DNA of 41,813 bases from Rhizaria sp. SCN 62-66. Taxonomy: Eukaryota. Below the pieces are notes generated by a model, which saw only the letters and a program-made list of their open reading frames with translations, was not told the origin of the DNA and ran no database searches. Position 1 is the stretch's first letter, and each line of letters begins with the position of its first letter. The translations under genes were made by a program, and so were the position numbers. Shown here piece after piece: positions 5,301 to 41,813 of this stretch. The stretch spans positions 124,001-165,813 of the forward strand of contig MEDY01000006.1 in NCBI GenBank assembly GCA_001724265.1, in the 5' to 3' direction.

Positions 5301-6469
5301 CGAGAGCAAGGTTGGGAAATAAAGAAAGGGAATGGAATAGAGTGAATGGTATAAAGAGAAAACGAGTGCGATGAAAAGCGCGATGATATAATGATACGTT
5401 TCATGGTGATGCGAGAGAATGTACGTACCACTCGGTGCGTCCTGCACGCAGACACCACTGCCCAGATCAGCGAAGCCGCCGTCGTCGAAGTGCACGAACT
5501 CAAGCACGGAATCCACGGTCAGCGGCGTGCGGTCGAACGGGTTGACGCGGAAGAAAGACATTTCCTTGTCCAGGTCTGGGTAGGCCTCCTTGGGCACCGC
5601 GGAGGAGTAGTACGGCGGCGGCTTGATCGACTCGGCGTCGGGACCCAGCAGCGTGAGCGAGAAGATGCGCCGGATCAGCGGCTCCGCCTCCGGGTGCACA
5701 ACCAGACGCACGCGCTGGCGCTTAATGAAGAATGCGAAGTAGGCCGGGAACTCAAATTCGGCGACTGAGATGCCCATTTCGAGGTTGAACCGCTCGCGCG
5801 GCAGCACGTACGTGGTCGGCAGCGTGAGTCCATGTGCCATCGAGTCCTTGATCGTCTCGGGCGGGCAGCCGACCTGGACGGGGCCGACCGTGGTGCTCAC
5901 GTAGGATCCGCCGCGCGGCAGCGCCACGACCGTCTGCGACTTGTCCGTGATACCCGCGCGCTGCAGACGGCGCTGCTCGCCCGCCACGGTGTTTTGCTTG
6001 CGCACGGACGCGACGTAGTCCTCGAGGGAGGACATGCCAGCGCTGCCGAGGCCGCTGCCGCTGTTGTTCAGCCTGTGAAAAGATAGTAAAACAAAAATCA
6101 TACGACGCAATTTGAGATAAAAAGAACATTGAAAGATGTAGGATTAGGTTCGAATAGAATGACTTTGATTGCATGTGACATGCTACGTACGGGTTGTTGT
6201 TTGTGGCGGAGCTGTGCGTGGACAGCAGCGCGGGCGTGAACCCGTTGCGTGACGGGAAGCTCGGCGTCGGCGTGGGATACCCGTGGAACGACTGCGCGAC
6301 CGACAGCGTGCTGCCGGGGCCGACGCCGGCGTGGAAGAGCATCCCGCCCGCGGCGGCCGGGGGCATCGAGGTGAACGACGCACTCGACGGGCTCTGTACG
6401 CCCGCGCCGTGGCTGCTGCACGTGCTCATCGCAACATTCGCGGTGTTATTAAAGCCGCCGCCGTTGTTA

Positions 6470-6502
<33 letters not shown>

Positions 6503-8173: not shown

Positions 8174-8205
<32 letters not shown>

Positions 8206-11001
8206 TTGTTGGTGGTGCTGAGGGGTGCGGTTGTGGACGGCACCGAGGGCGCCGGTGGGTTGCACCTGCACCTGGTGGTGGATCTGGTAATGCTGGTAGT
8301 TCTGCACCGCTCCCTGGCCCTGGCCCTGGCCCTGCTGCTGCTGGAGGAGTTGCTGCTGGTGGTGAAAGAGGCTGTTGACGCTGCTGCGGCCGCTGCTGCT
8401 GTGCGTCTGGTTGAGCTGCACGCCCGGGCTCGAGCTGTTGTCGGCGTGGTGCAAGTGATACTGCTGCAGCTGCTGCTGCTGATGCTGATGCTGATGATGT
8501 TGCTGCTGCGGCTGCGTAGCCAGCGCGTGGCCGTGGTGCGACGGCGAGTGGCCGGTAGCCCCCGCGCCGCCGGCGAAGCGGTGCGTGGGCGTCTGCGAGA
8601 ACTGCGCCCCCGCCCCCGCCCCCGCGCCCGCGCCCGCGTTCTGGGACAGCGGGTGGCCGTGGGTCGCCGCGTTGACGTTGACGCTCATGCCGGTCGCGTT
8701 TACGTTCGCGGTGTTGTTATTGTTGTTGTTGTTGTTCGCAGCCGGACTGCCGTTATTCCCGTTGGGGCTGGTGGGGGTGGTGACCGTGGTGATGGTCGCC
8801 AGCGGGGAGCTCGGCGCGCGCGACAGCACCGTGGCCGCCATCTGCTGCCCGACACTGCCGCCGCTGCCGTTCTGACTGATGCCGGAGCCCGTGGCCGTGA
8901 GCGCAGCGGGCACGCGGGCTGTGGAGCTGTTGCCGCTGCCGGGGCGCGGCACCTGCGGCGACAGCTGGCTCGAGCCCGACACGCTGTGGCTGAGCGCGTT
9001 GTTGCTGTGGTTCGCGGCAGCGGCGCTGGCCAGCAGGGCGAGAGCGCCGCCGGGGGTGCTGCTAGCGCCGCTGCTGTTGCCGCCGTTGCCGCTGCCGCTG
9101 CCGCCGGCGCTGCCGGGGCCGGTACTGGGGCCGGTGCCCGTGCAGACGCTGCTGCCGCCGGTCGTGGTAGCCGCGATCGCGACGGACAGGCCCAGGCCGC
9201 CGCCGTTGTGGGTCCCGGCGCCGGTGCCGTTGGCGTTAGCGTTGGAGTGGCTGTGCGCGGGGGGCCGGCCGAGTCTATGGCCGGACCGGGTGGCCGACAG
9301 CACCGTAGTCCCGATGCCGTGGCCGTGGCCGTGGTGACCGTTGTTGCCGACGGCGAAATGGCCGTGGGCGCCCGCGGGGCTGCCGCTGCCGTTGGCGCCG
9401 TTGCCGTACTGGTAGTGGTGCTGCGGCGAGATGATCGGGGGCGCGGCAGTGTTCGCAGCAGTAGCACCGTTGCCGGCGCCCGTGGAACCGGTGGAACCCG
9501 TGGAACCCATGGGGCCGGTGGGGAACACGTGGTGCGCTCTAGATCTGCTCCCGCGAGCGCTGACGCCGCCACCCTGGCCCTGGCCCTGCTGCTGCGCCTG
9601 CGAATGCTGATGCTCTGGGTGGGTGACGGTGTCGAGATCGGACTCGGAGTCGTTGGCGTAGTCGTTGAGTCTCAGCATCACGTTGTTGCCAACGACACTC
9701 ACCAGCGGCTGCGGCGGCTGTTGCTGTTGCTGTTGCTGTTGATGTTGATGTTGCTGCGACTGGCTGTCACCGAAAGATCTGAACACAGGCGCACCGGCAA
9801 CCTTGGCTGCGTCCGCCGCAGCGGCAGCGGCGTCGGCGGCGTTGCTGGTGGCACCGGGCGACGTGCTGCTGGTGGCGGAGCCGGCGCGACTGGGCCGCTT
9901 CATGTTGGGCTTGAAGTTAAGCCGCGCGGCGTGCGCGGGCATGGTTATCGTCACCACCGGCTGCGGCTGCGGCAGCGGCTGCGGGTGCTGCTGTGGCTGG
10001 AGCTGATGCGGCAGCGGCTGCGGCTGCGCGGCGGGCTGCTGGAAGTGGTGTTGCGGCGAGTGGCGCGAGCCGGCCAGCGCGGAGCCGGTGCTGCTGTAGC
10101 TGTTGCTGGTGTTGTTGATGTTATTGGCGGCGGTCGCGGAGGCGAAGGAGGAAGCGTTGAACGTGTGAGACGTGTACGTCGGTGCCTTGCGGCCGCGGAG
10201 GCCAAGCCCGGTCATGCCTCCGCCGACACCGGCGCCGGCGCCGACACCGGGGTTGACCCCAGAGCCAGTGCCATTGCCAGTGCCGGTGCCGAGCGAGGCG
10301 GCGCCGTGGCTGGTTGCGACCACGGGGTGCGGGGAGCGGGACGTGGGCACGCGCCGCTGATTCTGCTGCTGGGTCTGCTGATTCTGTTGGTTGTTGCTGT
10401 AATGCAGTTGCTGAGTCTGCGGGTGGCCGTGCGCGACTGCAGCGCCGGCGAGCGCGAACGACGAGGTCGGGGACCCCGAGGCCGAGCTCGACGCCGACCC
10501 CGACGCGGCAGACAGCGCGGAGCTCGACGAAGAGGTCGTGGCCGAGACCGAGGACACGAGAGCGCCGCTGGCACAACTGGCACTGTTCGAGGCGCCTGAC
10601 GCGGAGGCGGGCTCGGCGCTGTGCAGGTAGCCGCCGTTGCCGACAATGTACGCGCCCGAGGCCGCGATGGGCCCCGTGGGGGCGTTGGAGCCGGCGCTGT
10701 TGTTGGCGGAGGCCGAAGACGAGGCGCGCGAGGAGCCGGTCGCCGACGTCGGCGCCGCGGCGGTGGCGGTGGCGGCAGCGGCAGTCAGGATCGCCAGGGC
10801 GTCGTTGTTGGCGCACGGCGCCAGCGAGCCCGCGGGGACGACGCGCGTGGGAACCGGACGGGCCATGTTCAGCGCGTTGCTGCCCGCGGTGGCACCCGCG
10901 TGGGCCGCGGTGCTGCAGCTGTGCGAGCTGTTGTCGCTGGAGCCCGGACCGTGCACGCCCGAGGGAACGGGCGCGGACGGGGGCGGGCCGGTGAACGACA
11001 T
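2306..11001 (-). CDS. Metallo-beta-lactamase-fold cyclic nucleotide phosphodiesterase with two C-terminal cNMP-binding domains (Dictyostelium PdeD/PdeE, GbpA/GbpB type), ~2766 aa, with a ~1600 aa low-complexity N-terminus
   Basis: Exons 11001-6191, 6072-5429, 5297-4096, 3949-2306 join in frame through GTACG..AG introns (8301 nt, TAA stop). Motifs: GPVQVGCPPETIKD, FGVTMLGVSDGFD, VMVDPP, THCHADHD (HxHxDH), ALHSIP, YSGD, HEAG..IHT, and cNMP cassette FGELSVLFGTPRSA. The exact start is less certain. Confidence 0.85.
3950..4095 (-). other. Spliceosomal intron 3 of the PDE gene (146 nt)
   Basis: GTACGG...TTGTAG, AT-rich; splicing gives DGFDAQ|GTTTGFVIW in frame. Confidence 0.9.
5298..5428 (-). other. 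Spliceosomal intron 2 of the PDE gene (131 nt)
   Basis: GTACGT...TCGCAG; splicing gives DAPSG|EFVFWE in frame. Confidence 0.9.
6073..6190 (-). other. Spliceosomal intron 1 of the PDE gene (118 nt)
   Basis: GTACGT...TCACAG; splicing gives NNNP|LNNSGSG in frame. Confidence 0.85.
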
Positions 11002-11899
11002 TGCGCGCAGACGGCCAGAGGGCGCACGGGGGACGCGTTAGACCGCTGCGGGGCAAAGCTCGTGTGGTTGAGCAATGAGCGAGGAAAGGATGGGAAAGAG
11101 GCCCGGGGGCGCGCGCAGGCGAGGGACGCGGGGTGTCGACGAGGGGAGAAAGCACGGGGGCCAAGGGAGGTTGCAGTGGGGTGGACGTTGGCGTGGGGGC
11201 GCAAAAAGAGATGGAAACGGCCTAAGTGCGTGTGTTCAGTCACTGTGAGCGAAACCGAAGTAAACCGCGGTGGTCTGAGACGAGAGAAGCGAGGCAGGAG
11301 AGAGGCGGCGTGGGGTGTGCCAAGGGCAGTGAGAGGGGGGTCAGTCTCTGACAATACAGTCAATAGTGGTAATGTTTAGAAATGCAGAAAAAATATGATG
11401 TACATCGGTGATCATGAAATATATCCGCGTTATTATTCCTGCATAACAGCGATCATATCCCCTCGGCGGGAAGCTTCTCAGTTACGTCTCCACAACACGC
11501 CTGCCGCCTTCTTATTCTTCGCTGACTGCGATCACCCGACCGAGCTCCAGTCAGCCCTGCTGGTCCGTTTGTGGTCAGCAGACTTTCTTGACCGACAACC
11601 GAACTTGCTGGACCTCAAAGTCAAGCCGACAGAGAGCTCAGGCGTGACCCTGACCGCGTAATTGCATTTCAGGGTCGTGGTTTTATTGTTTAGGGGATGT
11701 ATTAATATAATTAGATAAATCGCTGCGCTAATTTTCCTCCTCTGCCATAATAGTTTCACCAACGGTTTCTCTGCATCGTTTTGAACACTTTTGTTGCGAC
11801 CCCAGAAAACGGACTGCTGGTCCCTCCCATCCCCGCGTCTTCGCTTCTCCCCACCCATCCCCGTTCCGAGCGCACGTGCAACCTTTTTTGCGGCCTGCC
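11002..11899. promoter_or_regulatory. Divergent intergenic region (candidate bidirectional promoter) between the PDE and GAF-kinase genes
   Basis: 898 bp between opposite ATGs; C/pyrimidine-rich leaders on each coding strand with AT-richer patches between. No specific element identified. Confidence 0.5.
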
Positions 11900-14800
11900 A
11901 TGACGACCCGCATCCCCACGGGCGGCGCTGGCGCCCGCAGTGTGCTCAAGCTGCGTCCCAACGCCGGTGCCACACCCTCCTCCACCAACGCTAACAGTAG
12001 TAACGCCTCCTCCTCGGCCGCATCGTCCTCTGCCGCCTCAGCGTCGACCACAAACACCGTCGCACACCACGGCATGGCCGACAACCCATACCAACGCCAC
12101 GCGCCCGTTGTCTCGGGCCCCAGCGCTGCGGCGGGCGCGCACGGCAACCAGGGCGGCGTGAATGGAGGCGCTTCGGGGGGATTTGCTCGCGTCCCCACCG
12201 CCTCGGCAGCCCCGGCGCCGGGCACCGTGCTCCCGGCTATCGGCAAGCGCTCGCAGTCGCCCCTCGCGTCCGGACACCACACCAACTCCGCGGGACTGCT
12301 GCACGCGCCCCCCAGCGCACTCAACACCTCGTCCTCGAGCCAGGGCCTGTCAGTGTCAGGCCCCGCCGCCCCTGTCACTCCGCTCGGCCGGCAAAACCCC
12401 GTTCTGACGCCTTCGTCGCCTTCATCTGCCATGTCTGCCTCTGCGTCTTTTTCCAGCCGCCCCTCCTTCTCCGGAATGCCCGGTGCAGGCTTTAACAGTA
12501 CGTTCACTGCTCATACTGCAGCCACAAGTCGATGGTGGAAAGAAATCTGCCCTGCTTCGGCATATTTTCGCCCATCCTCGTCTTGAGCACTCGATTTGAC
12601 TTGCATACTCTCAACAAAGCAACAGCAAATGTCGAAATGACATGATTTATACATGCTTTAACCAGTTCGCAATTGTTCTATCTTCAAACTCTTGCCCTAC
12701 ACTCATATATCTTCTTTGTCGCGCTTTACTTGTTTTTCTCTCTACTATCTGTTCTTAGGCAGCAACAGCTCCCTGACCACGACGCCGCGCGGCGCGCCGC
12801 TAGGCTCTGCCACGTCCACGGGCATCGGATCTGACTTCGTGCTCGCCTCTTCCCCGGCGGCCGTGGCGCCCAGCCCCGCGGAGCTAGCCTCCGCGCAGTC
12901 CCTCACCGGGGACGGCGAGGACCGCCGCTCGCAGGCGCTCAGCGCGCAGATCGTGCGCGTGGTGCAGGTCGCCGCGGCGCAGACGTCGACGCTGCGCATG
13001 GCGTCGGTGCTTGCGTACCACATCTCCACGCTGGTCGCCGCCGACTGCGTGCGCGTCGTCTCGGTCCGCCCCGGTGAGGGACTGGTCCGCATCAGCTCCG
13101 CGTCGCAGGCCAAGCCGTCCGACTCGGTCGGCTTCGTCGGACTCATGGGCCACGCGGCGCAGTCGCGCGAAGTCGTCAATCTGCACAACCCAGCGCAGGA
13201 CCCGCGCTTTCAGCCTACGGATAATTACCCGCAAAACTGCGTCATCGACGGCGGCTACCTCGCGCGCTGCGCCGGCACGGGCCCCTGCATCCGTGAGATG
13301 TCCGCCTCGTCCTTCGTCCAGCCCAACTACGCAGACCCCATGGCCATGCCCGCCGCCTCGGTATCCCCCGCGGCCGCCGCCGCCGTCGCCACGCTCTCGT
13401 TGCCGCCGGTCGAGGCGCTGCTGGCTGTGCCAGTCGAGTGCGACGCGACGCCGGACTGCCGCGGGAAGCGCGACGTGGTCGCCGTCATCCTCTGCATCCG
13501 CCGCCCCCACGACGGCATCCACATCGGTTCCGGCCCGGAGCCCTCTGTCTTTTCGCACCGCGACTGCCGCACCGTCTGGCGCATCGCGCAGCTCGTCGGC
13601 AACACGTTCCGCTCGATGGCCGCGCTCGACCGCGCGCAGGCACTCTACAAGGACTCGATGGCCTGGCACTCTCGGTTCGCGTCCGTGCTTAAGGTCGCCA
13701 ACACGCTGCTGTCGCAGACGGAGCTGGAGAGCGTCGTCACCAACATCGTGTCGCAGGTGCCGGACCTGCTCGACGCGGACCGGTGCACGCTCTACTTCAC
13801 GGACCGGACGAAGGAAGAGCTCATCGTCACCAAGGGCGCGTCGCACGGCCGTCCTAAGTCGCTTGTGAGCTGGGTCTTCGGCCAGTCCAACGCACCTGAG
13901 CTGCCGTTCCCCGAGGGCAAGAACGAGATCCGCTTCAGCATGTCTAAGGGCCTGGCGGGACACGTCGCGCGCACGGGCGAGACGCTTAACATCGTCGAGG
14001 CGCACTCGGACCCGCGCTTCAACGCGCAGATCGACAAGGAGACTGGCTACAAGACGCGCAACATGCTCTGCGTGCCGATGTGCGACGACAACAAGAACGT
14101 CATCGGCGTGCTGCAGGCGATCAATAAGAACCCGAGTGCGCCGTGCTTCGATTCCGAGGACGAGGCGCTGCTGCACACGTTCGCGGCCCAGGCCGTGCTC
14201 GCCGTGCACAACTCGATGCTGTTCGGTGCCACGAAGCGCGCGCGGCAGCAGTCGGACGCCCTGCTCGAGGTCACCAAGGCGCTTTCTTCCGAGCTCAACA
14301 TCGAGGCGTTGCTGCGCATCATCGTCACTAAGGTGCAGAAGCTGCTGTCGTCGGACCGCTGCACCGTGTTCATCGTCGACAAGGACAACAATGAGCTCTA
14401 CACCAACGAAGACATGAGTTATGGCATGGGTCCCGCGCTGCCCATCAACCACGAACGCTCCACTCTGATCCGCTTCCCCCTCGACCGAGGCATCGCCGGC
14501 TCCGTCGCGACCACGCTCACCACGGTTAACATCCCGGACGCGTACAAGGACCCGCGGTTCAACCAGCAGATGGACAAGGCCACGGGCTTCCGCACGCGGT
14601 CGATTCTGTGCATGGCGATCCGCGTACCGCGCAAACCCGAGTCGATCGGCGTGATCCAGTGCATGAACAAGTGCACCGCCACCGGCGAGTGGGTGCCGTT
14701 TGACCAAAGCGACGAGAAGCTGCTCCAGGCCTTCTGCACGCAGGCCGCAGTGGCGATTGAGAACTCGCGGCTGTTCACGCAGACTGAGAAGGCGCTCAAC

Positions 14801-16462
14801 CACGCGCTGCTCGAGAAGCGCAACAACAAGTTCTATATGTCCGTCACCAAGAATCTTGTTGCCAGCACGCAGCTCAACGCGCTGATCGAGCAGCTGAACA
14901 TGCAGGTCCGCATGCTGCTCAAGGCCGACGACTGCGCGCTTTATCTTACCTGCCCCGCGACGCGGGAGTTCTACCTCGCCAAGGAAGAGGTCGACCCCCA
15001 CCACCGTCGCTTCCCATACGGCATGGGCGTCGCGGGCTCTGTCGCACTCAGCGGACAGACCATCTCGATCTCCACTGACGCGTTCAACGACAACCGGTTT
15101 CACCCGGACGTTGACCAGCGCAAGGGCAAGGTGACGCACTCGATCCTATGCAGCGCCATCAAGGCCGACAACCCCGACGGCACGCTCGCGATCGTCGGCG
15201 TCATCTCGGTGCGCGACGAGAAGGACCGCGGCGGGTTCGAGTCGCAGGAAGAGCGTCTGCTCAAGGTCTTCTGCTCGCTGGCCGCCGTGTCAGTGCTGAA
15301 CCGCAACAAGCTGATGCAGCTCATGGACGGCCAAGACAGCAAGGACCACGACCGCACCGCCGCCGACTATCTCCAGCGCGAGCGCGGCATGAAGATCGCG
15401 TCGGACGACATCACCACGTTTTCGTACAATATGGAGGATATTGAGCTGCTCAACACCATCGGCTCCGGCTCCTATGGTGAGGTGTACAAGGCCAATGTGC
15501 GCAACAAGGTCGTCGCCGTCAAGAAGCTCCACGTCAAGAGCATCAAGGCCGAGCAGGTCGAAGCCTTCTGCCAGGTACGCATATCTTATTATCTTCCGCT
15601 ATCACGAATGACGCATTTCTATTTTGTTACATTGACTCATAGTATGTCTGTTTTTACTTAATATTCATTCAATACTACCATCATGTTCTTTTTATTATTT
15701 TGCGCTCTTTAGGAGGCGTCGCTGATGTGCCAGCTGCAACACCCCAACATCGTCGGCTTCGTCGGCGCCGTTACTGACCCTGCTTCTTTGTGTATCATCA
15801 CCGAGTACTGCCACCGCGGCTCCCTCGCTGACCTGCTGCTCAACCACGCGGTGCCGATGACTTTCCAGCAGAAGATCCAGTTCGCGCTTGACGCCGCACA
15901 GGGCATGAGTTACCTGCACTCGTCGAACCCGGTGATCTTGCACCGTGACCTCAAGAGCGACAACCTGCTCGTGGCCGAGGACTGGCATATCAAGGTCGGC
16001 GACTTCGGTCTCACGCGTTTCATGTCCGCTAAGAAGGCCATGACGCAGGTCGGTACGCCCATGTGGATGGCACCCGAGATCATCATGGGCAAGAAGTACA
16101 CCGAAAAGGCAGATGTATACGCGTTTGGCATCATCCTCTGGGAGCTGCTCACGCGTCTCGAGCCCTACGAGGACAAGGAGCCGATGCAGATCGTCGTCCA
16201 GGTCGTCAACGAGGGTCTGCGCCCGCTGATGACGCGCGAGTTCGACCAGTCCCCGCTCTCGCCGCTCATCCGCGACTGCTGGTCCGCCAACCCCGACGAG
16301 CGGCCCTCGTTCGACATCATCGCCGAGCGGCTGCAGGGGCTGCTCAACAAGGTCAAGAACGCGTTCTTGAACGATTTGGGTAACCCGCTGCCGGCGGGCG
16401 CGCCCGCGACAGCGACGTCTACTGTCACAGCCGCCCAGATTGTTGCTGCGCTAGCGCGCTAA
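11900..16462 (+). CDS. Protein kinase with four tandem GAF domains and a C-terminal TKL (Raf-like) kinase domain, ~1387 aa
   Basis: Exons 11900-12497, 12759-15574, 15713-16462 (4164 nt, TAA). GAF signatures ADCVRVV, DADRCTLYF, SSDRCTVFIVD, ADDCALYL, each followed by G.aG.vA and DPRF/DNRF; NK..F..DE motifs in GAF2 and GAF3. Kinase motifs GSGSYG, VAVKKL, HRDLKSDN, DFG, GTPMWMAPE, DVYAFG are intact. Confidence 0.9.
12498..12758 (+). other. Spliceosomal intron 1 of the GAF-kinase gene (261 nt)
   Basis: GTACGT...TCTTAG with a pyrimidine tract; phase-1 join FNS|SNSS. Confidence 0.8.
15575..15712 (+). other. Spliceosomal intron 2 of the GAF-kinase gene (138 nt)
   Basis: GTACGC...CTTTAG; join AFCQ|EASLM restores the helix-C Glu. 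Confidence 0.92.
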
Positions 16463-20244: not shown

Positions 20245-20825
20245 GAGTCTGCCAGGAGAGTGGGGATCGTATAGGTTAAGGTACGAGGTAGGAGAGGGCG
20301 TGGAAAGAGTGAGATAAGGGATCAACGAAAGCGTTTGTGGTCAGGTAGCAATGGATGCACATATACCACACAGCGATGTCCTAGAGACGTATTGTTTTAA
20401 ACACAAAGAAAATAATTCTTAAACATATCGGGCAAAGTTGCTTCAAGCTATTCTTATGATCAGATGTTGCACATTACATCCTGTCCAACTTGATGCATCA
20501 TCACTGCAGTGCGATCTCCATTTTTTTCGGAACCCGGTCGAGGGCAACCACTGCGCGAAGGCCACATTTGCCGTCCGCATAGACTGTTGTGAGCCTTGAA
20601 CAAAACGTCGCTAAAGACGCCATATCACTATAATTTTTAAGCATATCTTGTCCGTTTAATTCCGATTTTACACTCACTCGCAACTTGATCTGTGTCGTTT
20701 CCCGCCCGCTTTCCTTAGCAGTCGCTTTTTCCTTTTACACTACCAACACCTACATCCCTTTCGGCCTCCGTCCCGCGCTTCCCAGCTCCGTTCGCTCCCC
20801 CAGCGCGCCGCCGCCGCCGCCGACA
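20245..20825. promoter_or_regulatory. Divergent intergenic region between the UBX and DHX37 genes
   Basis: 581 bp between opposite ATGs; pyrimidine-rich leaders on both coding strands. Confidence 0.5.
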
Positions 20826-23800
20826 ATGTCCTCGCGCAAGCACGCCGCCGGCAGCGATGGCGACACTACAGAGATTCTCTACGACGAGTCCCGTAACAAG
20901 TCCGCGGTGGACGCCAACGGAGATGTGCTCGTGATGAAGCCCAAGGACAAGAACGCGCCCAAAAAGGTCAAGGAAGTCAAGGGCCCCGTCGCGGCCCCGG
21001 TCTCCAAGACGGTGCTGAAGAAGCTGGCGCGTCTGGAGCGCGAGCACGCGCTGAAGAAGGAGCGCGCCATCTCGCTCAAAGTGGTCAACGAAAACGCCAT
21101 CGACGAAAAGCACCGGCTCTTCATGTCCAAGTCGGGCTCGCTCGGCAAGGCGCTGACAATGAAGGAGAAGCTCACGATCGCGTATCAGGCGCAGAAGCTG
21201 GGCGTGACCGACGCGGACTTGCCGCTGCTGACCCAGGACGCGCTCGACCGCCTACAGACGGGCAACGAGGACGAGGACCTCACCGCGCTCGCTGTCGCCC
21301 GAGCTGAGGCCGCCGGCACGCTTAAGAGCTCCTCGCTCTCGGGCACCACCAACGCGTTCCAGTCGCGCTCCAAGATTTCCCACTCAGCATCTGCGCCCCG
21401 CACCACGATCTCCGGTCTGACCTCCACTGCGGCGACGGCGGCGCTGCTTGCGACTCTGAGCAACGAGGCGTCCCGCGCCGCCACGGCCGCCGCGAGCGCG
21501 AGCGGGAAGAAGGGCGGCAAGGTCGACTACGTCAAGATGGCCGAGGCGATGGTGCCCAACGCGATGGACGTGACGCAGGTACGCAAGGACAAGAAGAAGG
21601 CGCGCCACGCCGAAAAGAAGGCGCTCATCAAGGCCGCGCTCGACGCCACCTCGTCCGACGACGACGGCAACGGCGACAAGGACGGCGACGACAGCGACAA
21701 CGCCGGTGGCGACGAGGGCAAGGAGGCCGTTGTGGCCGTGCCCGCCGCGCTGGCCGGTCTGGTCGGCGCCATGGGCCTCCAGTCGGCGCGCACTACTGTG
21801 GCCCACATCAAGACCAAGGCCACCGGCAAGGGCGCCGACTACGCGCAGTCGGCGGCCGACGCCGCGGCCAAGCCTGCCGCGGCGGGGCGCGGCGCGGGCG
21901 GCAGCAGCAGCGTGCTGAGCAAGGCCAAGTTGGGCCACTCGCAGGCCGCCGTCGCCGCCGCGCAGGCCATCGCGATGGGGCTGGTGAGCAAGAAGAACAG
22001 CTCCAACACGCTCAAGGGCATCTTCGACGCCGCGTCCTTCACGTCCTCCGAGGACGAAGCCAACGGCGCCGAGGCCGCGAGCGATGATGACACCGAGAGC
22101 GGTGAGAGCGATCTTAGCGATTCCGGCTTCCGCCCCAGCGCCAAGCGCGCCCGCGCCGCCTCCGCCCACCCTAACGGCTCCGACTCTGACGATGACTCTG
22201 ACGCTGAGTCGGGGACCGGTTCCGGCAAGCAGAAGTTCGACTCGCTGACCGGCGTTGCGCTGGCCAAGAAGGACATCCGCGAGTTGGCCAACGTGCGCAT
22301 CTCGCGTCCGTTGATGACTGGCCCCACGGTGGTGCACACCGACAAGGCCGCTGTGGCCTCGCAGTCGATCCAGACGTTTGTCGCGCCCGCGGGCGGGTTC
22401 ACCTTCAACAAGGGCGGCGTCAAGCTGCTTATGAAGCCCGGCGCCGCCACCTCTGCCACCACCGCTGTGAACACGGTCACCGGCAGCGCACCCGCCGCTG
22501 CTGCCGCCGTGGCTGCCCCTGTTGTCACCCCTGCGCCTGTGGCCGTCGCCCCCGTCGCCGTCGTCGTCTCCAAGGCCGCCATCAAGGCGAAGGCCATGAA
22601 GGACGCCGACGAGGAAGAGGAGGAAGAGAACCCTTACGCGGTCAAGTTCAAGGTCAAGTCGGCGCGCGCCTCTGCCGTGCGCGCGCGCGTGGTGGCCGAG
22701 CGCGCGCTCATGTCCGACGCCGACAAGCGCAAGTATGACCATAGGCTCAAGAAACGCAAGGGTGCCGTCAGCAAGCTTGCAGGCTCTGCAGTGGGCTTCG
22801 CCGCAGGCGGCGAGTTCGACTCCGAGGATGATGACGAGGACGAGGATGACTCTGAAGCCGACGACGAGGACGACTCTGAGGCTGATGACGAGGACGAGGA
22901 TGATGACGACAAGGATGAGGACGACAGCGATGACGATGAGGACGAGCCTGCTCCTGCTCCAGTCGCCGCCACCAAGTCCAAGTCGACCGCCGCCGCCGTC
23001 GCCAAGCCCAGTGCGACTGCGGCCGCTGTCGTCCCCGCGAAGAAGCCCTCTGCGGTCGTCCCCGCCGCGGGCGGCAAGACGACGGAGCAGGTCGAGGAGG
23101 AGGAAGAGGAGGTCATCGACCGCGCCGCGGGCGTGCGCCGCGTGATCCGCACCGTCACCCGGTCCACGCGCACCGAGAGCGGCGGCATGAAGCGCACCAA
23201 GACCGTTACCACGGAAGAGTTCCCGCTTGAGGACGACGAGGGCAGCGCGAAGAAGAAGGCTAGCAAGGGTGACAAGGCCAAGGCTGAGAGCAAGGGCTCC
23301 AAGTCTTCCGCCGCTGCTGTTGCTGCTGCTGCTGCTGCTACTGCGAGTACGAAGAGTGACAAGAAGAGCAAGGTCCGCTTCGATGGGTCTAAGATGTCGT
23401 TCGAGGAGCTGATGCGGCGCGTGGCTAAAGATCTGAGCCGGCCTCTCAGCAGCGACGACGAGTCCGAGGCCGAGGGCGCGGCGCAGACCGCGGGCGTGGA
23501 CAGTGCCAGCGACGTGGACTCCGCCGAGGAGGACGAGGAGGACGCCGAGGAGGACGAGGAGGACGCCGAGGAAGACGACGACGAGGACAACGAGGATGAG
23601 GACGAGGATGAGGACGAGGATGAGGACGAGGACGAGGACGGCGTGATCGACAGCGAGGACGAGGATGCCGACGAAGCCGCCAAGGCTCGCGCCGAGGCCG
23701 AGGCCGCCGCCGCCCGCCGCGCCGCGGACGTCAAGCGCGTGTCAATGGCGGCGGCCAGCGCCGCTGACGCTGCGGCCCCGTTGAAGCAGAACCCGTTCCA

Positions 23801-26800
23801 CGTCCCCGTGGTTCGCAAGGAGGCGATCCAGGTACGCAACAAGAACAATAACAGCAATATCAATGCTGGCAGGAGCATTCCCGTTACCTCGAACAAGAGC
23901 AATGTGAACGCGAATGTCAACAACCAGAATAAGAACAAGAAGTAATTTATTTGTAGATTCATTATTGAAATGCAATCCAATCCAATGCGGGTTTTGTTTG
24001 AGAAGTTTAACATAAGAACGAGCAATACACACGTTGCAGCGGTGCACGTGTGTGCTTTCGCCTCTTTTAACTAAACTTTACAAGACAAAGCAAAACCAAA
24101 ACATCAAATCTATTTTAATGTACTCTACCAAACTCATCTCTATTCAACTTCGTGTTTGTTAAATCCTCTTCTTTTTTTTACGCCCCCGCAGTCAAGCCGT
24201 CTGCTGCTGCCCGTCGCGGCGCAGGAGCAGGAGGTCATGGAGGCCATCACCGCGCACGACGTGCTGATCCTCTCCGGCGAGACGGGCTCCGGCAAGACAA
24301 CGCAGGTGCCGCAGTTCCTCTACGAGGCGGGCTACGCGCGCGAAGGCCTGCTGATCGCGGTGACGCAGCCGCGCCGTGTCGCCGCGATGGCCTCGGCGAA
24401 GCGCGTCAACGAGGAGCTCAACGCACCGCCCGGGAGCAACCTGGTGGCGTATCAGATCCGGTACGACTCGCAGGTGCAGGCTGACACGCGCGTCAAGATG
24501 ATGACGGAAGGCATCCTGCTCAAGGAGGTCCAGGCCGACTTCCTGCTGCGCAAGTACAGCGTCATCATCGTCGACGAAGCGCACGAGCGCGGGCTCAACA
24601 CTGATGTGCTCCTGGGCCTGCTCTCGCGCATCGCTGCGCTGCGCAACTCGCTCATCGAGAAGCGCGACGCGCTGCTCGCGCGCGGCGTCCCGCTGCTCAA
24701 GGCGCAGGAGCCCGAGCCCGGCGCCAAACTGGCCGGGCTGCCACTGACGGGCCAGTCCGTGTCTGGCGGCAAGCTCAAGGTGATCATCATGTCGGCGACG
24801 CTGCGTGTGACCGACTTCACCGAGAACCCGCGGCTGTTCCCGACGCCACCACCCGTGCTCGAGGTGCCCTCCCGCCAGTACCCCGTGTCAATGCACTTCT
24901 CCCGCGTCACCACGCACGACTACGTCGAGAAGGCGCTGCAGAAGGTTGCACGCGTGCACGCGCGCCTCCCGCCCGGCGCCATCCTAGTTTTCCTCACCGG
25001 TCGCCAGGAGATCGAGGACTTTTGCCGTGAGCTGACGAAGATTTTCCCCCCGCCGACGCAGGAGCAGCTGGAGAAGCTGCAGGCCGCGCGCGACCAGGAG
25101 CAGAAGGCCGCTACCGCCGAAGCCAACGCCATCACCCACAACAAGGACGGTGCCGACGCCAAAGCGAGCGTGAACGCTGACGGCGCGGTTGTGACAGCGA
25201 GCGGCGCGACTGTGGGCCGTGTGGTCAAGGGCCGCGACGGCAAGGTGATCCTCGGCAAGGACGGGCAGCCGCTGATGGTCGGCCACGACGGCAAGGTCAT
25301 CCGCAACAACGCCAGCGCCGCCGCTAGCAGCGACAGCGGCAAGAAGGACGCTGATGCCAAGAGCAAGGGCAAGAGCGGCTCTGGCGGCAACGCGGCTGCG
25401 AAGCGCAAGGGCGTCACCCCGTTCACGGACGCTGAGCTGCGCCGCATTGAAGCGGGCGAGATGACCGACTCTGACGCCGGCTCCGGCTCTGGCTCGGACT
25501 CCGAGTCTGAGTCCGAGTCCGAGTCCGAGTCCAAGGAGGGCGACGCCAAGGACGGCGCCGGTGTTGCCATGACTGACAGCGCGAGCGGTGGCTCCGTGGT
25601 CACCGACGCCGACGCGGCGGCCGTCGCGGAGGCCGAGGCGATGTTCTTCGAGCTCTCCGACGACGAGGACTACGTGGGCGGCGGCGACAGCGACGAGGAT
25701 AAGCTCGACTCTGACTCTAGTGACAGCAACGATGACGATGACGACGACGCTGAGGGCTCGGAGTCCGAGTATGAGGCTGGCCCCGACGGCGAGATGATTA
25801 AGAAAGTTAAGCCGCCCAAGGCGAACAAGAAGGTTCTGCCTGAGAGCGGGATCAAGAAGAAGAAGGGGGAGTCCACGCTCGACGCCGAGACGCGGTCCAA
25901 GTCGTCCATTTCGGGTGATAAGTGGGCTGCTGAGCGCGCGGCCCTCATCGAGCAGAAAGACAAGCCGCCGATGATCGTGCTGCCGCTGTTCGCGCTGCTG
26001 CCGACGGAGCAGCAGATGAAGGTGTTCGCGCCCTCGACGCACAACTGCGGCGCGCGCGTCGTTGTCGTCTCCACCAACGTCGCCGAGACCTCGGTCACGA
26101 TCCCCAACGTGCGCTACGTCATCGACGCCGGCCGCGAGAAGACCAAGCTGTACGACCAGTCGACGGGCTCGTCGCGCTTTGCCGTCGGCTTCATCTCGCA
26201 GGCCGCGGCAAACCAGCGCGCCGGTCGCGCCGGTCGCGTCGGGCCGGGTCACGCGTACCGCCTCTACTCCGGCGCGGTGTTCGGCGAGCACTTCATCAAG
26301 CACACGCAGCCCGAGATCCTGCGCCAGCCGATTGAGGCCACGGTGCTGCAGATGAAGTCCATGGGCATCCGCGACGTCGCCGCCTTCCCGTTCCCGTCGC
26401 CGCCGCCGTCGCTGGCGCTGCGCGAGGCCACGCGCACGCTGCACACGCTCGGCGCGCTCACCGTCGCCGACCCGGATCTTGCGCGCAGGCTCGACGCGCT
26501 CGCCACGGCCAAGATGGCCGCCACGGCCGCGACTAACTTGGCGGCCGCGCAGACCGGCCGCGCCGCGGGCATGCCGGGCTCGCTCGCCGAGGCGCGCGTG
26601 GCGGCGATCGCGTCCAGCGTCGCGGCCCGCAAGGCGCGCGAGGCGGCCGAGAACGGCGGCATCGGCAGCGCCGAGAGTCTGTTCCGCTCCGGCATTGTGG
26701 GCCGCGACGGGCGCCGGCGGCTCGCCAACGGCAAGCTGGCCCCGCGCGCGCGCATCGCTGACTACGGCGACGACCGCGACGACTTTGGCAACGTCGTCGA

Positions 26801-29417
26801 GGAGGCCACTGGCATCACGCCGCACGCGGTCGTCGATCAAGGCCCCGCGTGGGGCTTCGACTACGACGTCGCCGCCACGGCCGCCGCGCTCGCCGTGACG
26901 CCCGCCGGCCGCGCCATGTCGCTGTTCCCGCTCCACCCGCGGTTCGCGAAAATGCTCATGATGGCAGCGAACCAGGGCATCACGGACAAGAGCAACGCCG
27001 CCGCCGCGGCGGCCGCGAGCGTGTCTGCGGGCGGCGCCGCGGGCGTCAAGGGCGAGCAGGCCGCACTTCTGCCGCTGGCCGTGATCGTGGCCGCAGTGCT
27101 GACGGTGAGCGAGATGATCGTGAAGCCGCGCGTGCTGCAGCAGTTCGAGGACCGCGAAGAGGCGGAGAAGCGCCGCATGGCCGGCGTGGCCGCGAAGCAG
27201 GACAACGGCAACGAGCGCAGCGACGAGGAGAACGACGACGATGCCAACGCAGGCAAGGGCAAGGGTGACGACGACGGCGACGACTACGACGACGGCTTCC
27301 CGCCCCTGGGCGAGGAGAATAGCGACGACGAGTACGACCCGCTCGTCCGTGAGCGGCGCGCGCTGGCCGAGGCCCGCCGCATCGCCAAGGAGGAGAAGAA
27401 GAAGGCCAACGCGGCCGCGGAGGAGGCGCGCCGCGTCCGCATGCGCGCGCTGCAGCTCAAATGGGTGACCTCGCGCGCCAAATTCGCCGTGCCGCACTCG
27501 GACACTCTTACGGCGCTGCGCGTCGTCGGCGCCTACGTGCACCTGCGGCAGACGCTCACCGACAAGTACACCCGCGCTCTGCAGCGTGCGCGCGCCGCCG
27601 CGGGGACCGCCGCCAGCGCGGGCAACTACAAGGGCAAGAAGAGCGCATTCGAGCGGCTCCCACTGGCCGTGCAGCGGACGATCAACGCGAAGCTGCTTGA
27701 GTTCTGCAATGACAACTTCGTCCGCCCCAAGGCCATGGGCGAAGTGCTGCTGCTGCGCGACCAGCTCACGCGCATCGTCATGCAGCGCCTGGCGGGCGCG
27801 CGCGCCGTCGCCCCCGCCGCGGCCCCCAAGCCCGCCGCTCCGAAGAACAACAACGGCACCAGCGCCGCGCTGGAGCAGTCGCTGATGTCGACCCCCGCAA
27901 GCGCCGCCAGCAACGTCGATGACGGCGCTGACGGCGAGGCCGGCGCGGCCGAGAACGGCGTGTTCAGCGGCGGCGTCGGCGACATCACGGCCGCGCTTGA
28001 GTCCGGCGATGCCGACGAGGCCTACGACGACCTGTTCGCGGACACCGAGGCCGCCGAGGCGGCTGCCGAGGAGGCCGCCGCCGCCGAGGCCGCGGAGGCG
28101 GAGGCGGAGGCGCGCGCCGCGGCGATCATGGCGGCCCCGGTGCAGGGCAAGGAGCGTGTGTACGAGACGGGCGGGTTCAAGATCAGTTCGATCTCCACCA
28201 ACGCTACAAAGCCCGCAGCCGCCGCCGCCGCCGCCGCCGCAAGCGCCCCCACTGCGCCGGCGAGCGGCGTGACCGCGACCGTGAATGGCAAGGTGGTCGC
28301 GCCCGTGGTGGGCGAGTGGGAGCGCGCGCGCCGCAGTCTGTTGGCCGCGCTGACCAACCCGACGCTCTCGGTGCCGACACCGCACCAGGAGCTCGCGCTG
28401 ACGCAGATCCTCCTCACGGGCTTCGCCGACAAGGTCGCGCGCAAGATGACGCAGGAGTCGAAGCTGCTTACCATCCAGAACAGCCACAAGTACCCGCAGA
28501 TCCCGCGCCGGCGCCTCAAGGCGATCCGCGACGAAGAGCGCGCCAAGGAGGAGGCCAAGAAAGCGCTGCTGGCGAGCATCAAGATTAAGGTCGGCGGCGC
28601 GCGGCCGACGCTGATGGCGCCGCCCACGGGCCCGCAGGACGTGGCTGATATCCCGCTAGACCTGTTCGACCTCGAGGGCGCGTACGAGACGCTCGATGGG
28701 ACCGGTGAGCCTGTGTTCCTGTCGCCCGATTCGGTGCTGGCCGACACACTGCCCGACTTTGTGTGCTTTCACGAGCGCAACACGCACGTTGGCCGCCGCA
28801 ACCGCACCATCATCGCGGGACTGACCGCCGTCAAGGCCGAGTGGTTCTCCACCCTGGTCCCGCCCACGGTCGGCCTGCTCTCGGTGTCGGCGCCGCTGGA
28901 GGAGCCGGCGCCGGTGTGGGACCCGCGGTCGGACCGCGTGGTGTTCTGGGTTGGCGTCACGCTCGGCCCGCGCATGTGGCCGCTGCCCAACGCCAAGCGC
29001 CAGTACGAGGACTCGGTCAAGGTCATCACCGTCCCCGCAGTCACTAACGGCAGTCTCAACAACAAGGCGGGCGGGAACGCGGCGGTGAAGCACCGGAAGA
29101 TCTTGGTCAAGCCGCCGGTCTACTACAAGCAGTTCGCGCGCTTGCTGCTCGAGGGCCACGTCGTGCCGGCGCTGCGCGCGTTCCGCCCCTTCTACGTCGC
29201 CAAGACCGGCTCGCCGCTGGCCGTGCCCACGCCCGCGGCGGCGCTGCGCCTCGTCGAGGAGATTCGCAGCAACAACATCCGCGGCGTCGAGGACCTGCGG
29301 CGCATGTGGGCCAAGCCCGGCGCCAACGGGGTCAAGTTCCTGCTCGAGGAGTTTAGCGCCTTTGTGCACCCGAGTAAGAAGGCCGAGATCGCGGCGATGT
29401 GGCCTCCTCTCAAGTAA
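20826..29417 (+). CDS. DHX37: DEAH-box RNA helicase DHX37/Dhr1 (SSU processome), ~2743 aa with large acidic/Ala-rich insertions
   Basis: Exons 20826-23831 and 24192-29417 (8232 nt, TAA). Motifs GETGSGKTTQVPQFLYEAG, TQPRRVAA, YQIRYD, DFLLRKYS, DEAHER, SATLRV, FLTG, STNVAETS, QRAGRAGR; Dhr1-type N-terminus (SGSLG..TMKEKL) and acidic insertion in RecA2. Confidence 0.9.
23832..24191 (+). other. Spliceosomal intron of DHX37 (360 nt)
   Basis: GTACGC...CCGCAG; join RKEAIQ|SSRLLLPV restores the conserved R..LP pre-helicase segment. Confidence 0.9.
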
Positions 29418-37050: not shown

Positions 37051-40000
37051 ATGCCACCGCAGCAGCGCCCGCAGGCCCGCGCCGCGCCCGACCCAGCACT
37101 CGTTTCCGCCGTTGTCGCCGCCCTTCGCGCGACGGGCTTGCCCGCCTCCGAGCCCTGGCTGCTCTCGTTCCTCGCCTCACACCCGCACCCGCCGCCGCCG
37201 CTCCCTGCCAGCGCCGCCAGCGGTGACGCCGCGGGCTCGACCGCGCTGGTGCCGGCCGCGCGCGTGCCGTGGTGCCCGGCGTCGCTGTACTTTGCGGGGT
37301 ACGCGGCGCTGATGGACCTGGACTGGGCGGACCCGGCGGCGGACTCGCCGGCGCGCCTGCTCAGCCCTCTCGTACCACAGCACAACAACAACAACAATTA
37401 CAACATCAATCACAACAACAGTATCACTCAGAATGATAAAGGCAGCAATAACGCTGCTGGCTTGTTATATCCAGCTCCCATTCAACCTCCCCAGAACAAC
37501 AGCAGTCTCGGTCCCGCTTCCACAGCTCTGGTCCCAACAACGTCATCGTCAGTCGGCACTAGCTCGCATCCGCAGGATACGGCGACCGCCCCTTCATTTT
37601 CCTTCGCCGCGGCGGCGGCCGCGCAGCCGTGGGTGCTGCGGGGCCCGCTCGTTGCGCAGGTGGCCGCGCGCCGCGACGTCGCGCACTGCGCGCAAGACCG
37701 CGCCAACGCGCGCGCGCGAGCCGCCGAACGGGAGAAGGCGCGCGCCGACGCCGAAGCGCTCAAACAGGTCGCCGCCGCGGTCGCGGTTGCCGGCAGCGCG
37801 GGCGCCAGTAGTGGCGCTGGCGCGGGGTTTAAGGGAAAAGGCAGGGGCAAGGGCAAGGCAGGCGATATTGCAAACGCGAGCGCCGGTGATAATGAGAGTA
37901 GTGCAGTTGTTGTTGCGGCTGTGCCGACGGGAGTCGTGTTTGGCGTCGATTTGAACACAAAGGACGACGACGACAGTCTCGGCAACGGCCTATTCGGCAA
38001 AGGCAAGGACACCGACGATGACGACGATGATGGCGACAAAGACGACGTCGACTTGGCGTTGCTTTCTAAGCCGCAAATGAAGCTCAACTTCTGCTTCGGC
38101 GGCAGCGCAACGGGAGTTGGAGTCGAAGTCCTGCCGATCCAAGGCATCTCAACTGCGCCGGCACCCGGACTGCTGCTACCGAACAACGTCGGCAACAACT
38201 ACACTCAACCCTTCCCGTCGACATCGTCAGCCGCAAGCTCCTCCGCCTCAGCCTCAGCCTCTGCCTCCGCGACTGCAGCAACTGGTGGGTTGAGTGCGAG
38301 CGCGACGTCGGCGTCCCCGCTGCTGTACCTTTGCGACGCGCTGACGCGGGCGCGCGCGGCGAGCGTGGGCATGCCCGCGACCGCGCTGGCGCACCGGGCG
38401 GCCACGGCCACGCGAAAAACTACCGTGATCACGCCCAGCGGCCCGAACAACCCCGCTAACACCAGCCATGCTGACAATGCCAACGCTGTGGGATCTGGAG
38501 GCGTGAAGGGCAGGGGAAGCAAAGCCATCGCTGCCGCTGCTGCTGCCGCCGCAACTGCTGCTGCTCCTGGCAGCAGCGCGGCGGGCAACGCCAGCGGTGC
38601 GGCGGGCAGCGCCAGCGGGGCGATCGCGGTCGGCAGCGGCGTCGTGCTGGTGCGGCCCACGGTCAAAGTGCTGCTAACCAACTGCCCGGTGCACGTGGGC
38701 CTGCTGCTGTTGGATCCCGCGAACTGCTACCTCGTGCCGCACCCGCCCACGGTCACGCCCTTACACCTGACCCCATTGTATCGGCACAACAGCGCGAAAC
38801 ACGGCAAGTTCGGTGGCGGCGGTCTCGACCCCGGCTCGAGTGTTGCCGACGCTCTCAGTGGAGTGAGTGGTGGTCCCGCCAGTGGCAGTGGACGGGGCGC
38901 GCAGTTGTGGGCGCAGTGGATCCCCCACAGCCAGCTCAGCCTCGCTCTGATTAACGCCACTGCTCACAGACACTTGTTCTCTGCCTCTGCTGCTGGCTCT
39001 GCGACTGCGGCTGCGGCAGCTCGCGGTCACAGTATCCCGCCGCCACAGCCCGTGCGCGTGCCCGCCGCGTGTGTGGCCGAGCGGCCGGTCGCGCACGGTT
39101 TCCCGGCCCCGGTGCCGTGGCGCGGCTGGGAGGAGCGCGAGACGGCCCGGGCCAAGGAACACGAGAAGGAACTCGAGGCCAGGGCCAAGGAACAGGATGC
39201 CAGGGTGAAAGAGCATGAGGCCGCGAAGGCGAGCAGTGTGTCGCTGTACACGCGGCAACGGGATATTGTCCCCAGCGCGGGTGCGACCGCCAACACAAGC
39301 GCCACCACGAACCTGAATGCCATCAGTAGCGCAACTGCGGGTGCGTCTGTTGCTCTGAATGCCACTGCTGCTTCTTCGGCAGCAGTAACGGGCAATTCAA
39401 GTGCTGATGTGGGCAGTAACAGCAGCTTCGCTTACGGAAACAAAAGCACCGTCAACCCCAGTCACGTTAACGCCAACGGCACTGTTAGTAATGCTAAGAG
39501 CTTTAACGCATATTCCGCAATGTCTTCTATCTCTTATGATCTCAAAATACGCAATCACAACGTCACAATGCGTGACAATGACAACGACAGAGACAGTGAC
39601 CTCGAGATTACTTCCGTGTTCACTCAAAAAGACTCTTTCACGCAAGGTAAAGAAAACATATGTCGTGCTTACGCAAGCGCGGGCTTCAAAGTGGAGCAAC
39701 AGCAGCAACAACAGCATCTAGGGCAATACTAGACACACCTTAGCTCGAGCTCAAGCATTGCCAACTACAACGGAAGCTCTAGGTCAAGCTCCAATGCTAG
39801 TCCTCCTGCTGTGGCCGGTGATATTGTCGTCGCGACTGCCGCAAGCGTCGCCGTCGCCTACACCGCCGGCTCTGCCGCCTTCTTGCACTCGCTGGGCGTC
39901 CCCTCCACCGCTGCCGTGAGCGCGGGCAGCGAGTTTATGGCGACTCTGCCGCTGCCCAACGTGCCAGCAAGCTTTACACCCGGGCAGAGCAGCGTGCTGC

Positions 40001-41460
40001 GGCGGAAGAGCAGCTGGAGCAAGAGCCAGGGTCAGGGCAGCAACGACAACAACACACAGCTGAGCCGGAGCCAGAGCCAGAGTCGGAGTCAGAGCCCGAG
40101 CCAGAGCCAGAGCGACATCAATGCGAGTCCCAACGAGTTCGAGACCGAGGCTGACGCTGCGCTGCTGTGGCTCGAAAAACTGCTGCCTTCATCACGCCTG
40201 CCGCTGTTCACGTTGTTCTTGGTGCTCATGCACAAACTCTCCAACGTGTCGTCGACTCAAGCTACAGCAGCGCCGCTTGCAGCCGCAGGCGCCACTACAA
40301 AGACTGTTGAGGCGGCGTCGGCAGCGGATAACGCCGCTTTCACAACGGTGTTAACCGAGGCGGAGCTGGCCACCGCGGCGCCTCTCGCTGACATCATTAC
40401 AGCGCGCACGACTGCTGCTGCGGTCATGAAGCAATTCTGGCCCACGTGCGGCTTGACTTCTCCGAATGGCGGCCTAACTTCTCCGACGGGATCTGACTCC
40501 GCACCGGCAATTTCGCCGACTGCGAGTGGTGTTGTCGCCGGTGCGGTAAGCGTGTGCATCACTGACCCTGTTGACATAAAGACGTTCACGATTGTTCCTA
40601 CAAGCAACGCGAGCAATTCGGCAGCGGCGACGAGCCGTGAGTGCGTTGCACTTCGGATCACGCACTCACACTGCTATTGTGCTGCTAACAACGCGCACAT
40701 CAATACCAACTCTTATAACAGCAGCAGTGCGACTTCTGCGAGCGCCACTGCTGGTGACACTTCTGCGCTCATGTGTCACATTTGCTCTCAGGCACGGGAG
40801 CAGCAGCAACAACAACACCGCTCGCAGGCGCTGTTTGAGCACGATGTCGTCGATGTGCTCTGTGCGCCTCCTCGCGCGCGGCTTACTTTGAATTCCCCTG
40901 TGCGGCTGAACTTCCCCGCGCCGTGGCAACTCGCGCAAGCGTGGTCGCGGTGGACGCATCAAGTCCTGCGCTGGATTAGTCTGAGCAGTGCATTTGGCGC
41001 TAATGCTCTCGCGAAAGCCGGCGCGGCGGCAGCAGCGGCGATAATGGCGGGCGACAGCGACGGCACTCTGTGGGAAGCAATCGTGATGTCCACTCTCCAC
41101 GCTGCAATCCTCTCGCGCGCCTCCACGGCCGCTGACACGGCATTAGCAGCAGCAGCAGCAGCAGCAACGGCAGCGTCACCCGCAGCGGAGGACGGGCCGT
41201 GGGCAGTTCTCACGGTTGTGACCAAGGTCCTGAGGGTGTTGGTGGCGATGCAAGGCAAACTTGTGTTTGTGCCTGTCACGCCTGCGCGCGACATCAAGCA
41301 CAACTTCCTCGGTCTGCAACAGCCAGTAGCAATGGGGGGCGCGAGTGCGAATGTTACTGCTTATGGTGGCGTGAATCGTGCGAACGCTGTTGTCCCGCGC
41401 GAGTCGACGAGGCTGGCTTTGTCTTTCAATGTTTGCGCAATTGCGGAGCAACTTGAGTAA
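37051..41460 (+). CDS. RMI1: RecQ-mediated genome instability protein 1 (RMI1)-like, ~1469 aa, one reading frame containing an in-frame TAG at 39730-39732
   Basis: N-terminal RMI1 elements: LPASEPWLLSFL, LRGPLVAQV..RDVA, QMKLNFCFG..GVEVLPI, VKVLLTNCPVHVGLLLLDPANC. The frame resumes directly after the TAG and runs to TAA 41458-41460 with weaker RMI1_C-like elements (PLFTLFLVL, IITART, VSVCITDP, LRVLVAMQGKLVF). Confidence 0.7.
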
Positions 41461-41732: not shown

Positions 41733-41813
41733 GGACTATAACTCACACGAACAAAATGAACTATCACAACTCACACAATCACAACTCAGTCACTGAGGAC
41801 TATAACTCACACG
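41733..41813 (+). repeat. 17-bp direct repeat GGACTATAACTCACACG x2 with related ACAACTCA units between; truncated by the window end
   Basis: Copies at 41733-41749 and 41797-41813. Confidence 0.75.

Follow-up and report, generated by a model that had tools for sequence, protein, structure and literature searches.

The question raised by this locus is whether a single in-frame TAG ends a gene or interrupts one. The DNA examined, called the window below, is a stretch of 41,813 nucleotides (nt) from contig MEDY01000006.1 of Rhizaria sp. SCN 62-66, and towards its right-hand end two long open reading frames (ORFs) lie on the forward strand in the same frame with one stop codon between them. The upstream ORF (37051-39732, coding to 39729) encodes 893 aa of a probable divergent RMI1. 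The TAG stands at 39730-39732 in the context CAA TAC TAG ACA CAC, and the frame behind it stays open for 575 codons, from 39733 to a TAA that ends at 41460. Counted from its first GTG, which lies 26 codons past the TAG at 39811, the downstream ORF (39811-41460) encodes 549 aa; the first in-frame ATG follows at 39937, 68 codons past the stop. A first-pass annotation had described this arrangement from the letters of the DNA, and when the coordinates were recomputed its shared frame, its 26 sense codons before the GTG and its position for the first downstream ATG all proved correct. This is the only junction in the window at which long ORFs of one frame are separated by a single stop. Most likely the two ORFs form a single reading frame or did so until very recently, and the TAG itself is most likely an ordinary truncating stop, with no sign that it is decoded as an amino acid. 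As to how it arose, a nonsense mutation of recent date, which struck a low-complexity linker and left a short yeast-type RMI1 and an undecayed remnant, is put forward here as a plausible but tentative reading.

The TAG is genuine and is not an assembly error. The comparison was made with assembled contigs, in which rare variants are dropped: X3 and X4 are DNA contigs from two other studies, X5 is a nominal polyA-RNA run, and X7 does not cover the TAG. The X3 contig spans 38907-41391 at a depth of 5.1 with 0 differences, the TAG included. The X4 contig spans 39111-40079 at a depth of 9.4 and also has the TAG intact, with one difference, an A>G at 39748 that changes Ser to Gly; this single-nucleotide polymorphism (SNP) falls 16 nt past the TAG. 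An assembly chimera at the TAG was considered and rejected, since two independent contigs run across it. The X5 contigs lie at 39451-39711, 39753-39954 and 40833-41100, with 0 differences and no loose ends listed there; the two that flank the TAG have depths of 2.1 and 3.6, and the 41 nt between them (39712-39752) are uncovered. On six other contigs the gene callers place the start of the downstream ORF at the earliest start codon that follows the TAG, and they do the same on a variant allele, P0001, which carries a 10-aa repeat deletion. The repeat in question is a Ser/Gln/Arg-coding hexanucleotide array at 40062-40112 on the forward strand, whose length varies between alleles (P0001 is without 10 residues). 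ESM Atlas stores the upstream and downstream ORFs as two records. Diversity within the species is very low, at 1 SNP in ~3.5 kb of X4 pieces in all. In the A run at 41752, a 1-nt insertion variant is found in all four runs compared.

These data bear directly on the idea that the TAG is heterozygous or polymorphic and that a sense allele was dropped by the assemblers. Such a hidden allele is quite improbable: contigs do drop rare variants, the X5 contigs break on either side of the TAG and the SNP at 39748 attests to some variation nearby, but all of the assemblies (3/3, from three studies) carry the TAG, the contigs of X3 and X4 are unbroken through it, and no alternative letter is listed at 39730-39732. 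The gap in X5 begins before the TAG and fits the low depth of that run (2.1 to 3.6).

Whether the frame is coding on both sides of the stop was judged with a codon table trained on 6124 codons from six confident exons. The frame-0 log-ratio, in bits per codon, is +0.07 over 37051-39300, -0.03 over 39301-39729, +0.09 over 39733-39936 and -0.04 over 39937-41457. The other five frames range from -0.34 to -1.5, with -0.34 to -1.1 for the upstream ORF, and intergenic controls from -0.57 to -1.2. The final 143 codons before the TAG (39301-39729, forward strand) are N/S/T-rich and low in GC (0.44-0.55) and are still coding-like, being open in only 4/2000 dinucleotide shuffles and exceeding 20000/20000 shuffles in codon likelihood. 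Within them lies a T-poor 320-nt stretch (39397-39721) where three frames out of six run open over more than 100 codons, namely 39401-39721 on the forward strand, 39397-39717 on the reverse strand and the RMI1 frame. Immediately past the TAG, the 26 sense codons at 39733-39810 (forward strand; THLSSSSSIANYNGSSRSSSNASPPA) have a codon signature that is not separable from shuffles: they are open in 690/2000 and matched in codon likelihood by 3660/20000. A strong coding-like signature then appears in the 42 codons, none of them ATG, that begin with the first GTG and end just before the first ATG (39811-39936, forward strand), where codon likelihood is beaten by 0/20000 shuffles. The 575-codon continuation as a whole is open in 0/2000 dinucleotide shuffles. 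Base composition also continues: GC over the 200 nt after the stop is 64% at the TAG vs 32-46% at the 7/7 other gene-end stops. The coding-like signal thus runs on past the TAG and no AT-rich spacer follows it, the latter as the first-pass annotation had held.

These measures have to be read with some care. The protein-anchored intron of the DHX37-type gene in the window scores -0.20 in one frame on the same codon table, and GCC-periodic text occurs also in one of the window's 5' untranslated regions (5' UTRs). Because an intron and a 5' UTR show similar signals, the codon and composition signatures across the TAG are suggestive and do not amount to proof. The first third of the same DHX37 intron reads as an N-rich 'protein' in frame, which is a warning for codon-based measures of coding in general.

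Composition and codon signature continue past the TAG, unlike the AT-rich flanks of the other stops, and two ordinary neighbouring genes are therefore unlikely. In such an arrangement RMI1 would end at the TAG and an unrelated orphan would follow so closely that the intergenic region overlaps or is very short, its start being the ATG at 39937, the near-cognate GTG at 39811 or a reinitiation event on a shared transcript. Chance speaks for it in part: two unrelated genes would share a frame (1/3) and have an open 68-codon spacer (368/2000 dinucleotide shuffles) in ~6% of cases, so that the shared frame and open spacer by themselves are not striking. The downstream protein has no family in common with RMI1, the 26 codons past the TAG look non-coding by codon likelihood, and GC falls to 44-47% before the TAG, as it does at gene ends. 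Against this, the flank lacks the AT-rich composition seen after the other stops (GC 0.64 vs 0.32-0.46), spacings elsewhere in the window are larger (e.g., ~385 nt between the stop of DHX37 and the ATG that follows), and the coding-like signature sets in no less than 126 nt before the first ATG. The X5 contig at 39753-39954, moreover, begins 21 nt past the TAG at a depth like that of the contig before it, so that a separate promoter would have to sit inside the RMI1 coding region. Taken with these points, a separate orphan gene is improbable, though less so than a hidden sense allele.

Splicing offers another way in which the TAG could be absent from the mature message. The first-pass annotation had argued that no conventional intron removes it, and this is upheld by the scan for donors and by the RNA contigs. 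The scan, which takes GTACG followed by a drop in GC, recognises 10 donors in the window, all of them GTACG; among the 71 GTACG matches on both strands the final one is at 37371-37375, and none therefore lies near the TAG on either strand. The search for a conventional intron over the TAG found no GTACG donor after 37375, no pyrimidine-rich 3' end and no RNA junction. The donor-like GTAAAG at 39647, in phase 1, indeed has no compatible AG just past the TAG: as far as 40100 the one AG in phase with it is at 39967, at a distance of 321 nt, and the X5 contig at 39451-39711 crosses this GTAAAG unspliced. No RNA joint that skips the TAG is present in the X5 contigs. The joints that are listed come from X3, X4 and X7 only and were rejected as repeat artefacts, their sides being 20-24 nt long and lying in low-complexity repeats.

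An unconventional intron with a donor other than GTACG, which would remove the TAG from the mature mRNA, is the least probable of the explanations weighed here. The region 39301-39750 has intron-like GC (0.44-0.55, with a GC content at third codon positions, or GC3, of ~0.5), the AGs at 39743, 39782 and 39800 are in phase with a GTACAC at 39246 that comes close to the consensus, and the DHX37 intron also holds N-rich, coding-looking text. However, 10/10 donors in the window are GTACG with none past 37375, the GTACAC lacks the invariant G5, and its candidate acceptors are without pyrimidine tracts such as the two introns anchored by protein domains have. The putative intron is, furthermore, open in frame for 161 codons (5/2000 shuffles), the X5 contigs 39451-39711 and 39753-39954 lie unspliced inside it, and no X5 joint passes over the TAG.

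The upstream ORF is a probable divergent RMI1, an assignment made because two sub-threshold Pfam matches fall in the correct order. Residues 536-561 match RMI1_N_C (PF08585) with E=2.7e-4 and a score of 21.2 bits, short of the cut-off at 23, and the match spans only profile positions 105-130 of 146, which is the end of OB1. A search with the first 116 residues matched RMI1_N_N (PF21000) at residues 25-56 with E=0.12 and 13.5 bits, also below the cut-off of 23. The two matches are collinear and keep the domain order of RMI1, the helical domain preceding OB1, and on these grounds the RMI1 type that the first-pass annotation had given to this part is probable. Long low-complexity inserts and a low-complexity tail accompany the putative domains. 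A word-based homologue search with residues 515-700 found none among 8000 scored candidates, phmmer with both ORFs and the OB1 piece found no RMI1 chain among PDB sequences, and ESM Atlas gave no usable match for either ORF.

What a protein ending at the TAG would lack can be gauged from RMI1 of other organisms. Yeast Rmi1 is without OB2, which is therefore not universal in RMI1 (PMC3814364), and an Arabidopsis RMI1 without OB2 is reported to complement somatic and meiotic recombination defects (PMC3814364, PMC3182221). If translation ends at the TAG, the product would resemble the short fungal-type RMI1/BLAP75 in having a helical domain, then OB1 and no OB2, as is described for yeast Rmi1 (PMC3814364). 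It differs in its 893 aa, its very long low-complexity inserts and Pfam matches that stay below threshold.

The continuation has no comparable identity. From the first ATG to the TAA (39937-41460, forward strand) it encodes an orphan low-complexity protein without a recognisable domain. The first-pass annotation had proposed that this part resembles RMI1_C, and no such similarity was found in Pfam, PDB sequences, 1.84 billion representatives or ESM Atlas. The whole downstream ORF and three sub-segments gave no Pfam match even at E<=10, and PDB sequences gave no match at E<=1. With residues 124-575 as query, phmmer returned a single match from the 1.84 billion representatives, the sequence's own cluster. 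A scan of JGI metagenomes with the downstream ORF produced 596 pattern matches and 0 tblastn relatives, and for this reason no orthologous TAG site could be compared. Structural models were equally uninformative about RMI1_C: the ESM Atlas model of the downstream ORF has a predicted local distance difference test score (pLDDT) of 0.32, and AlphaFold on 40150-41457 without an alignment reached a pLDDT of 37, too poor for fold comparison. The earlier statement that the TAG is probably translated rested on the resemblance to RMI1_C and loses its basis with it. The locus is like long-form animal and plant RMI1 (DUF1767, OB1 and an OB2 that binds RMI2) in having a long disordered linker after OB1 and a same-frame C-terminal region of several hundred residues; it is unlike it in that the C-terminal region shows no RMI1_C similarity and an in-frame TAG stands between the halves.

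If the TAG were decoded, a protein of 1469 aa would be made in addition to that of 893 aa or in its place, whether by readthrough, by adenosine-to-inosine (A-to-I) editing of UAG to UIG or by rare sense reading. Such decoding is unlikely, and it is kept in consideration because the 575-codon remnant has stayed intact and because two alleles and three studies have the stop in common. An in-frame stop followed by a long coding-like ORF, as expected for readthrough, is present at this locus, save for the first 26 codons. Several features favour decoding: the continuation is in the same frame for 575 codons without a further stop (0/2000 shuffles), a coding-like signature resumes before any ATG (39811-39936, 0/20000), the flank past the TAG is GC-rich unlike that of the 7/7 other stops, the TAG and an intact continuation occur together in two alleles and three studies, and TAG ends 0/7 of the other genes in the window. 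On the other side, the stop context is unfavourable, with an A at +4, a position at which a purine favours termination. No readthrough-favouring 3' context or downstream RNA structure was found (TAG-A), stable structure being absent after (z=+0.53) and around (z=+0.63) the TAG, whose A sits in a weak stem. The first 26 codons past it have no codon signature, no domain that could give a long form its rationale is recognisable in the continuation, and the RNA contigs do not reach the TAG, so that none of them bears on editing.

General reassignment of TAG to a sense codon is a separate matter and is unlikely, because the six confident exons contain 0 in-frame TAG in 6124 codons, beside 251 CAG and 262 GAG. 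The window contains 0 tRNA genes. Selenocysteine uses TGA, and to our knowledge pyrrolysine machinery does not occur in eukaryotes; either residue at this TAG was rejected from established knowledge.

Known systems provide two precedents for decoding. In Drosophila kelch, a long ORF1-stop-ORF2 arrangement is reported to be read through (bioRxiv 10.1101/2020.06.22.165522), and the present locus is like it in having a single in-frame stop between two long same-frame ORFs on what seems to be one transcript. It differs in its unfavourable stop context, the lack of downstream structure and the lack of relatives found. The second precedent is restorative A-to-I editing of UAG, reported from filamentous ascomycetes, where hairpin loops are preferred (PMC11156358, PMC10776026). 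The likeness here lies in a premature UAG whose ORF is intact apart from it and in the U at -1 of the edited A, which every UAG has by nature; the differences are that the A is outside a hairpin loop, that the organism is not placed as an ascomycete and that the RNA contigs miss the TAG. Slightly less likely than decoding in general is a programmed recoding site in the strict sense, at which readthrough or stage-specific restorative editing would allow an uncultured, intron-poor protist to translate one mRNA into both a short RMI1 like that of yeast and a form of 1469 aa that carries a C-terminal module specific to its lineage.

The tentatively preferred explanation, a young nonsense mutation, would account for the locus as follows. 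The ORF at 37051-39732 and its 575-codon continuation would be one transcription unit and, until recently, would have been one frame. A point mutation in the low-complexity linker may then have produced the TAG; CAG to TAG is the natural candidate change, given the Q-rich context that precedes it, and both the origin and the recency of the event are proposed from the state of the sequence. The stop would now be the common state in a wastewater protist. Translation would end at the TAG to give an RMI1-type protein of 893 aa whose C-terminal half is absent, as in yeast, and which would keep the helical domain and OB1, the module used for TOP3/RecQ binding in other eukaryotes. The continuation would be left behind as an orphaned remnant that basal leakage, if anything, still translates and that is too young to have gathered further stops. 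The very low diversity in the species makes it plausible that the mutation is young and its remnant still intact.

Several observations weigh against this explanation. The 575-codon ORF is intact (0/2000), so that either the mutation is very recent or the continuation is still selected. The stop is not a transient lesion, because it is common to samples from 2015-2025, to three studies and to two alleles. Relatives were not found among 1.84 billion representatives, in the JGI scan or in the word-based search, which leaves the ancestral sense codon undocumented. Since TAG ends 0/7 of the other genes, the window itself does not show termination at this codon, and the X5 contigs leave 39712-39752 uncovered, so that continuity of the transcript over the TAG is not directly seen. 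In comparison with a recent unitary pseudogene or truncating nonsense allele, the locus has the expected single stop, no frameshift, an intact remnant, low diversity and a low-complexity linker, and it is set apart by a stop shared over three studies, 10 years and two alleles.

The rest of the window gives the genomic setting of these ORFs. It comes from a metagenome contig with GC-rich exons, AT-rich spacers and few introns, GC3 reaches 0.84-0.90 in its best genes, and runs in public archives with a matching stretch are bioreactor, wastewater and activated-sludge metagenomes; a family of 168-kb contigs is present in public assemblies. No close relative of the organism was found in the databases searched. 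The contig is that of an intron-poor eukaryote with a tightly constrained splice donor, a conclusion drawn because the GTACG scan finds 10 donors and the two protein-anchored introns are of the same type. Intron-poor eukaryotes typically have a 5' splice site of this kind, extended and almost without variation. The donors listed on the forward strand are at 15575, 23832 and 31199, all with a GC drop and two of them also anchored by domains; those listed on the reverse strand, each with a sharp GC drop, are at 36363, 36105, 34074, 6190, 5428 and 4095. The base after GTACG is C, T or G, and AG usually precedes the donor. Only two introns are anchored by protein domains, the others being called from the sharp GC drop, and both of the anchored ones begin CAG|GTACGC: a 360-nt intron at 23832-24191 in a DHX37/DHR1-type helicase gene and a 139-nt intron at 15575-15713 inside the kinase domain of a GAF-kinase gene, both on the forward strand.

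The helicase gene (20823-29417, forward strand) has that 360-nt intron as its only one. The best named matches to its core, at 49-56% identity, belong to fungi, oomycetes and amoebozoa, and the best of the unnamed ones, a metagenomic protein, reaches 63%. The product is ~2x the usual length, owing to very long acidic, Ala-, Ser- and Lys-rich inserts. The GAF-kinase gene (12662-16462, forward strand) encodes tandem GAF domains followed by the protein kinase domain that the intron splits. Another example of unusual length is a giant multi-exon gene on the reverse strand (2306-11037), which ends with a TAA at 2306 and has putative donors at 6190, 5428 and 4095; one of its exons comprises 1761 codons with a GC3 of 0.85 and no Pfam match at E<=0.001. 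The seven other gene ends in the window use TAA in four cases (2306, 16462, 29417 and 41460), TGA in three (18502, 31836 and 31997) and TAG in 0. Terminators are mostly TAA despite a GC3 of 0.85-0.9, and the sample of gene ends is too small to interpret.

The window thus documents a eukaryote with strictly GTACG donors, a GC3 of 0.85-0.9 and terminators that are mostly TAA or TGA. Should the TAG be decoded, the locus would be a rare case of a 575-aa extension by readthrough or editing outside animals and ascomycetes, in a genome-stability factor, and would open a way to study how translation terminates in an unsampled lineage of eukaryotes that is common in wastewater reactors. If the TAG is a truncating stop, the case would be an ordinary one, a nonsense allele of recent origin in a gene that evolves fast, and it would serve mainly as a caution that a same-frame ORF after a stop is no evidence for recoding.

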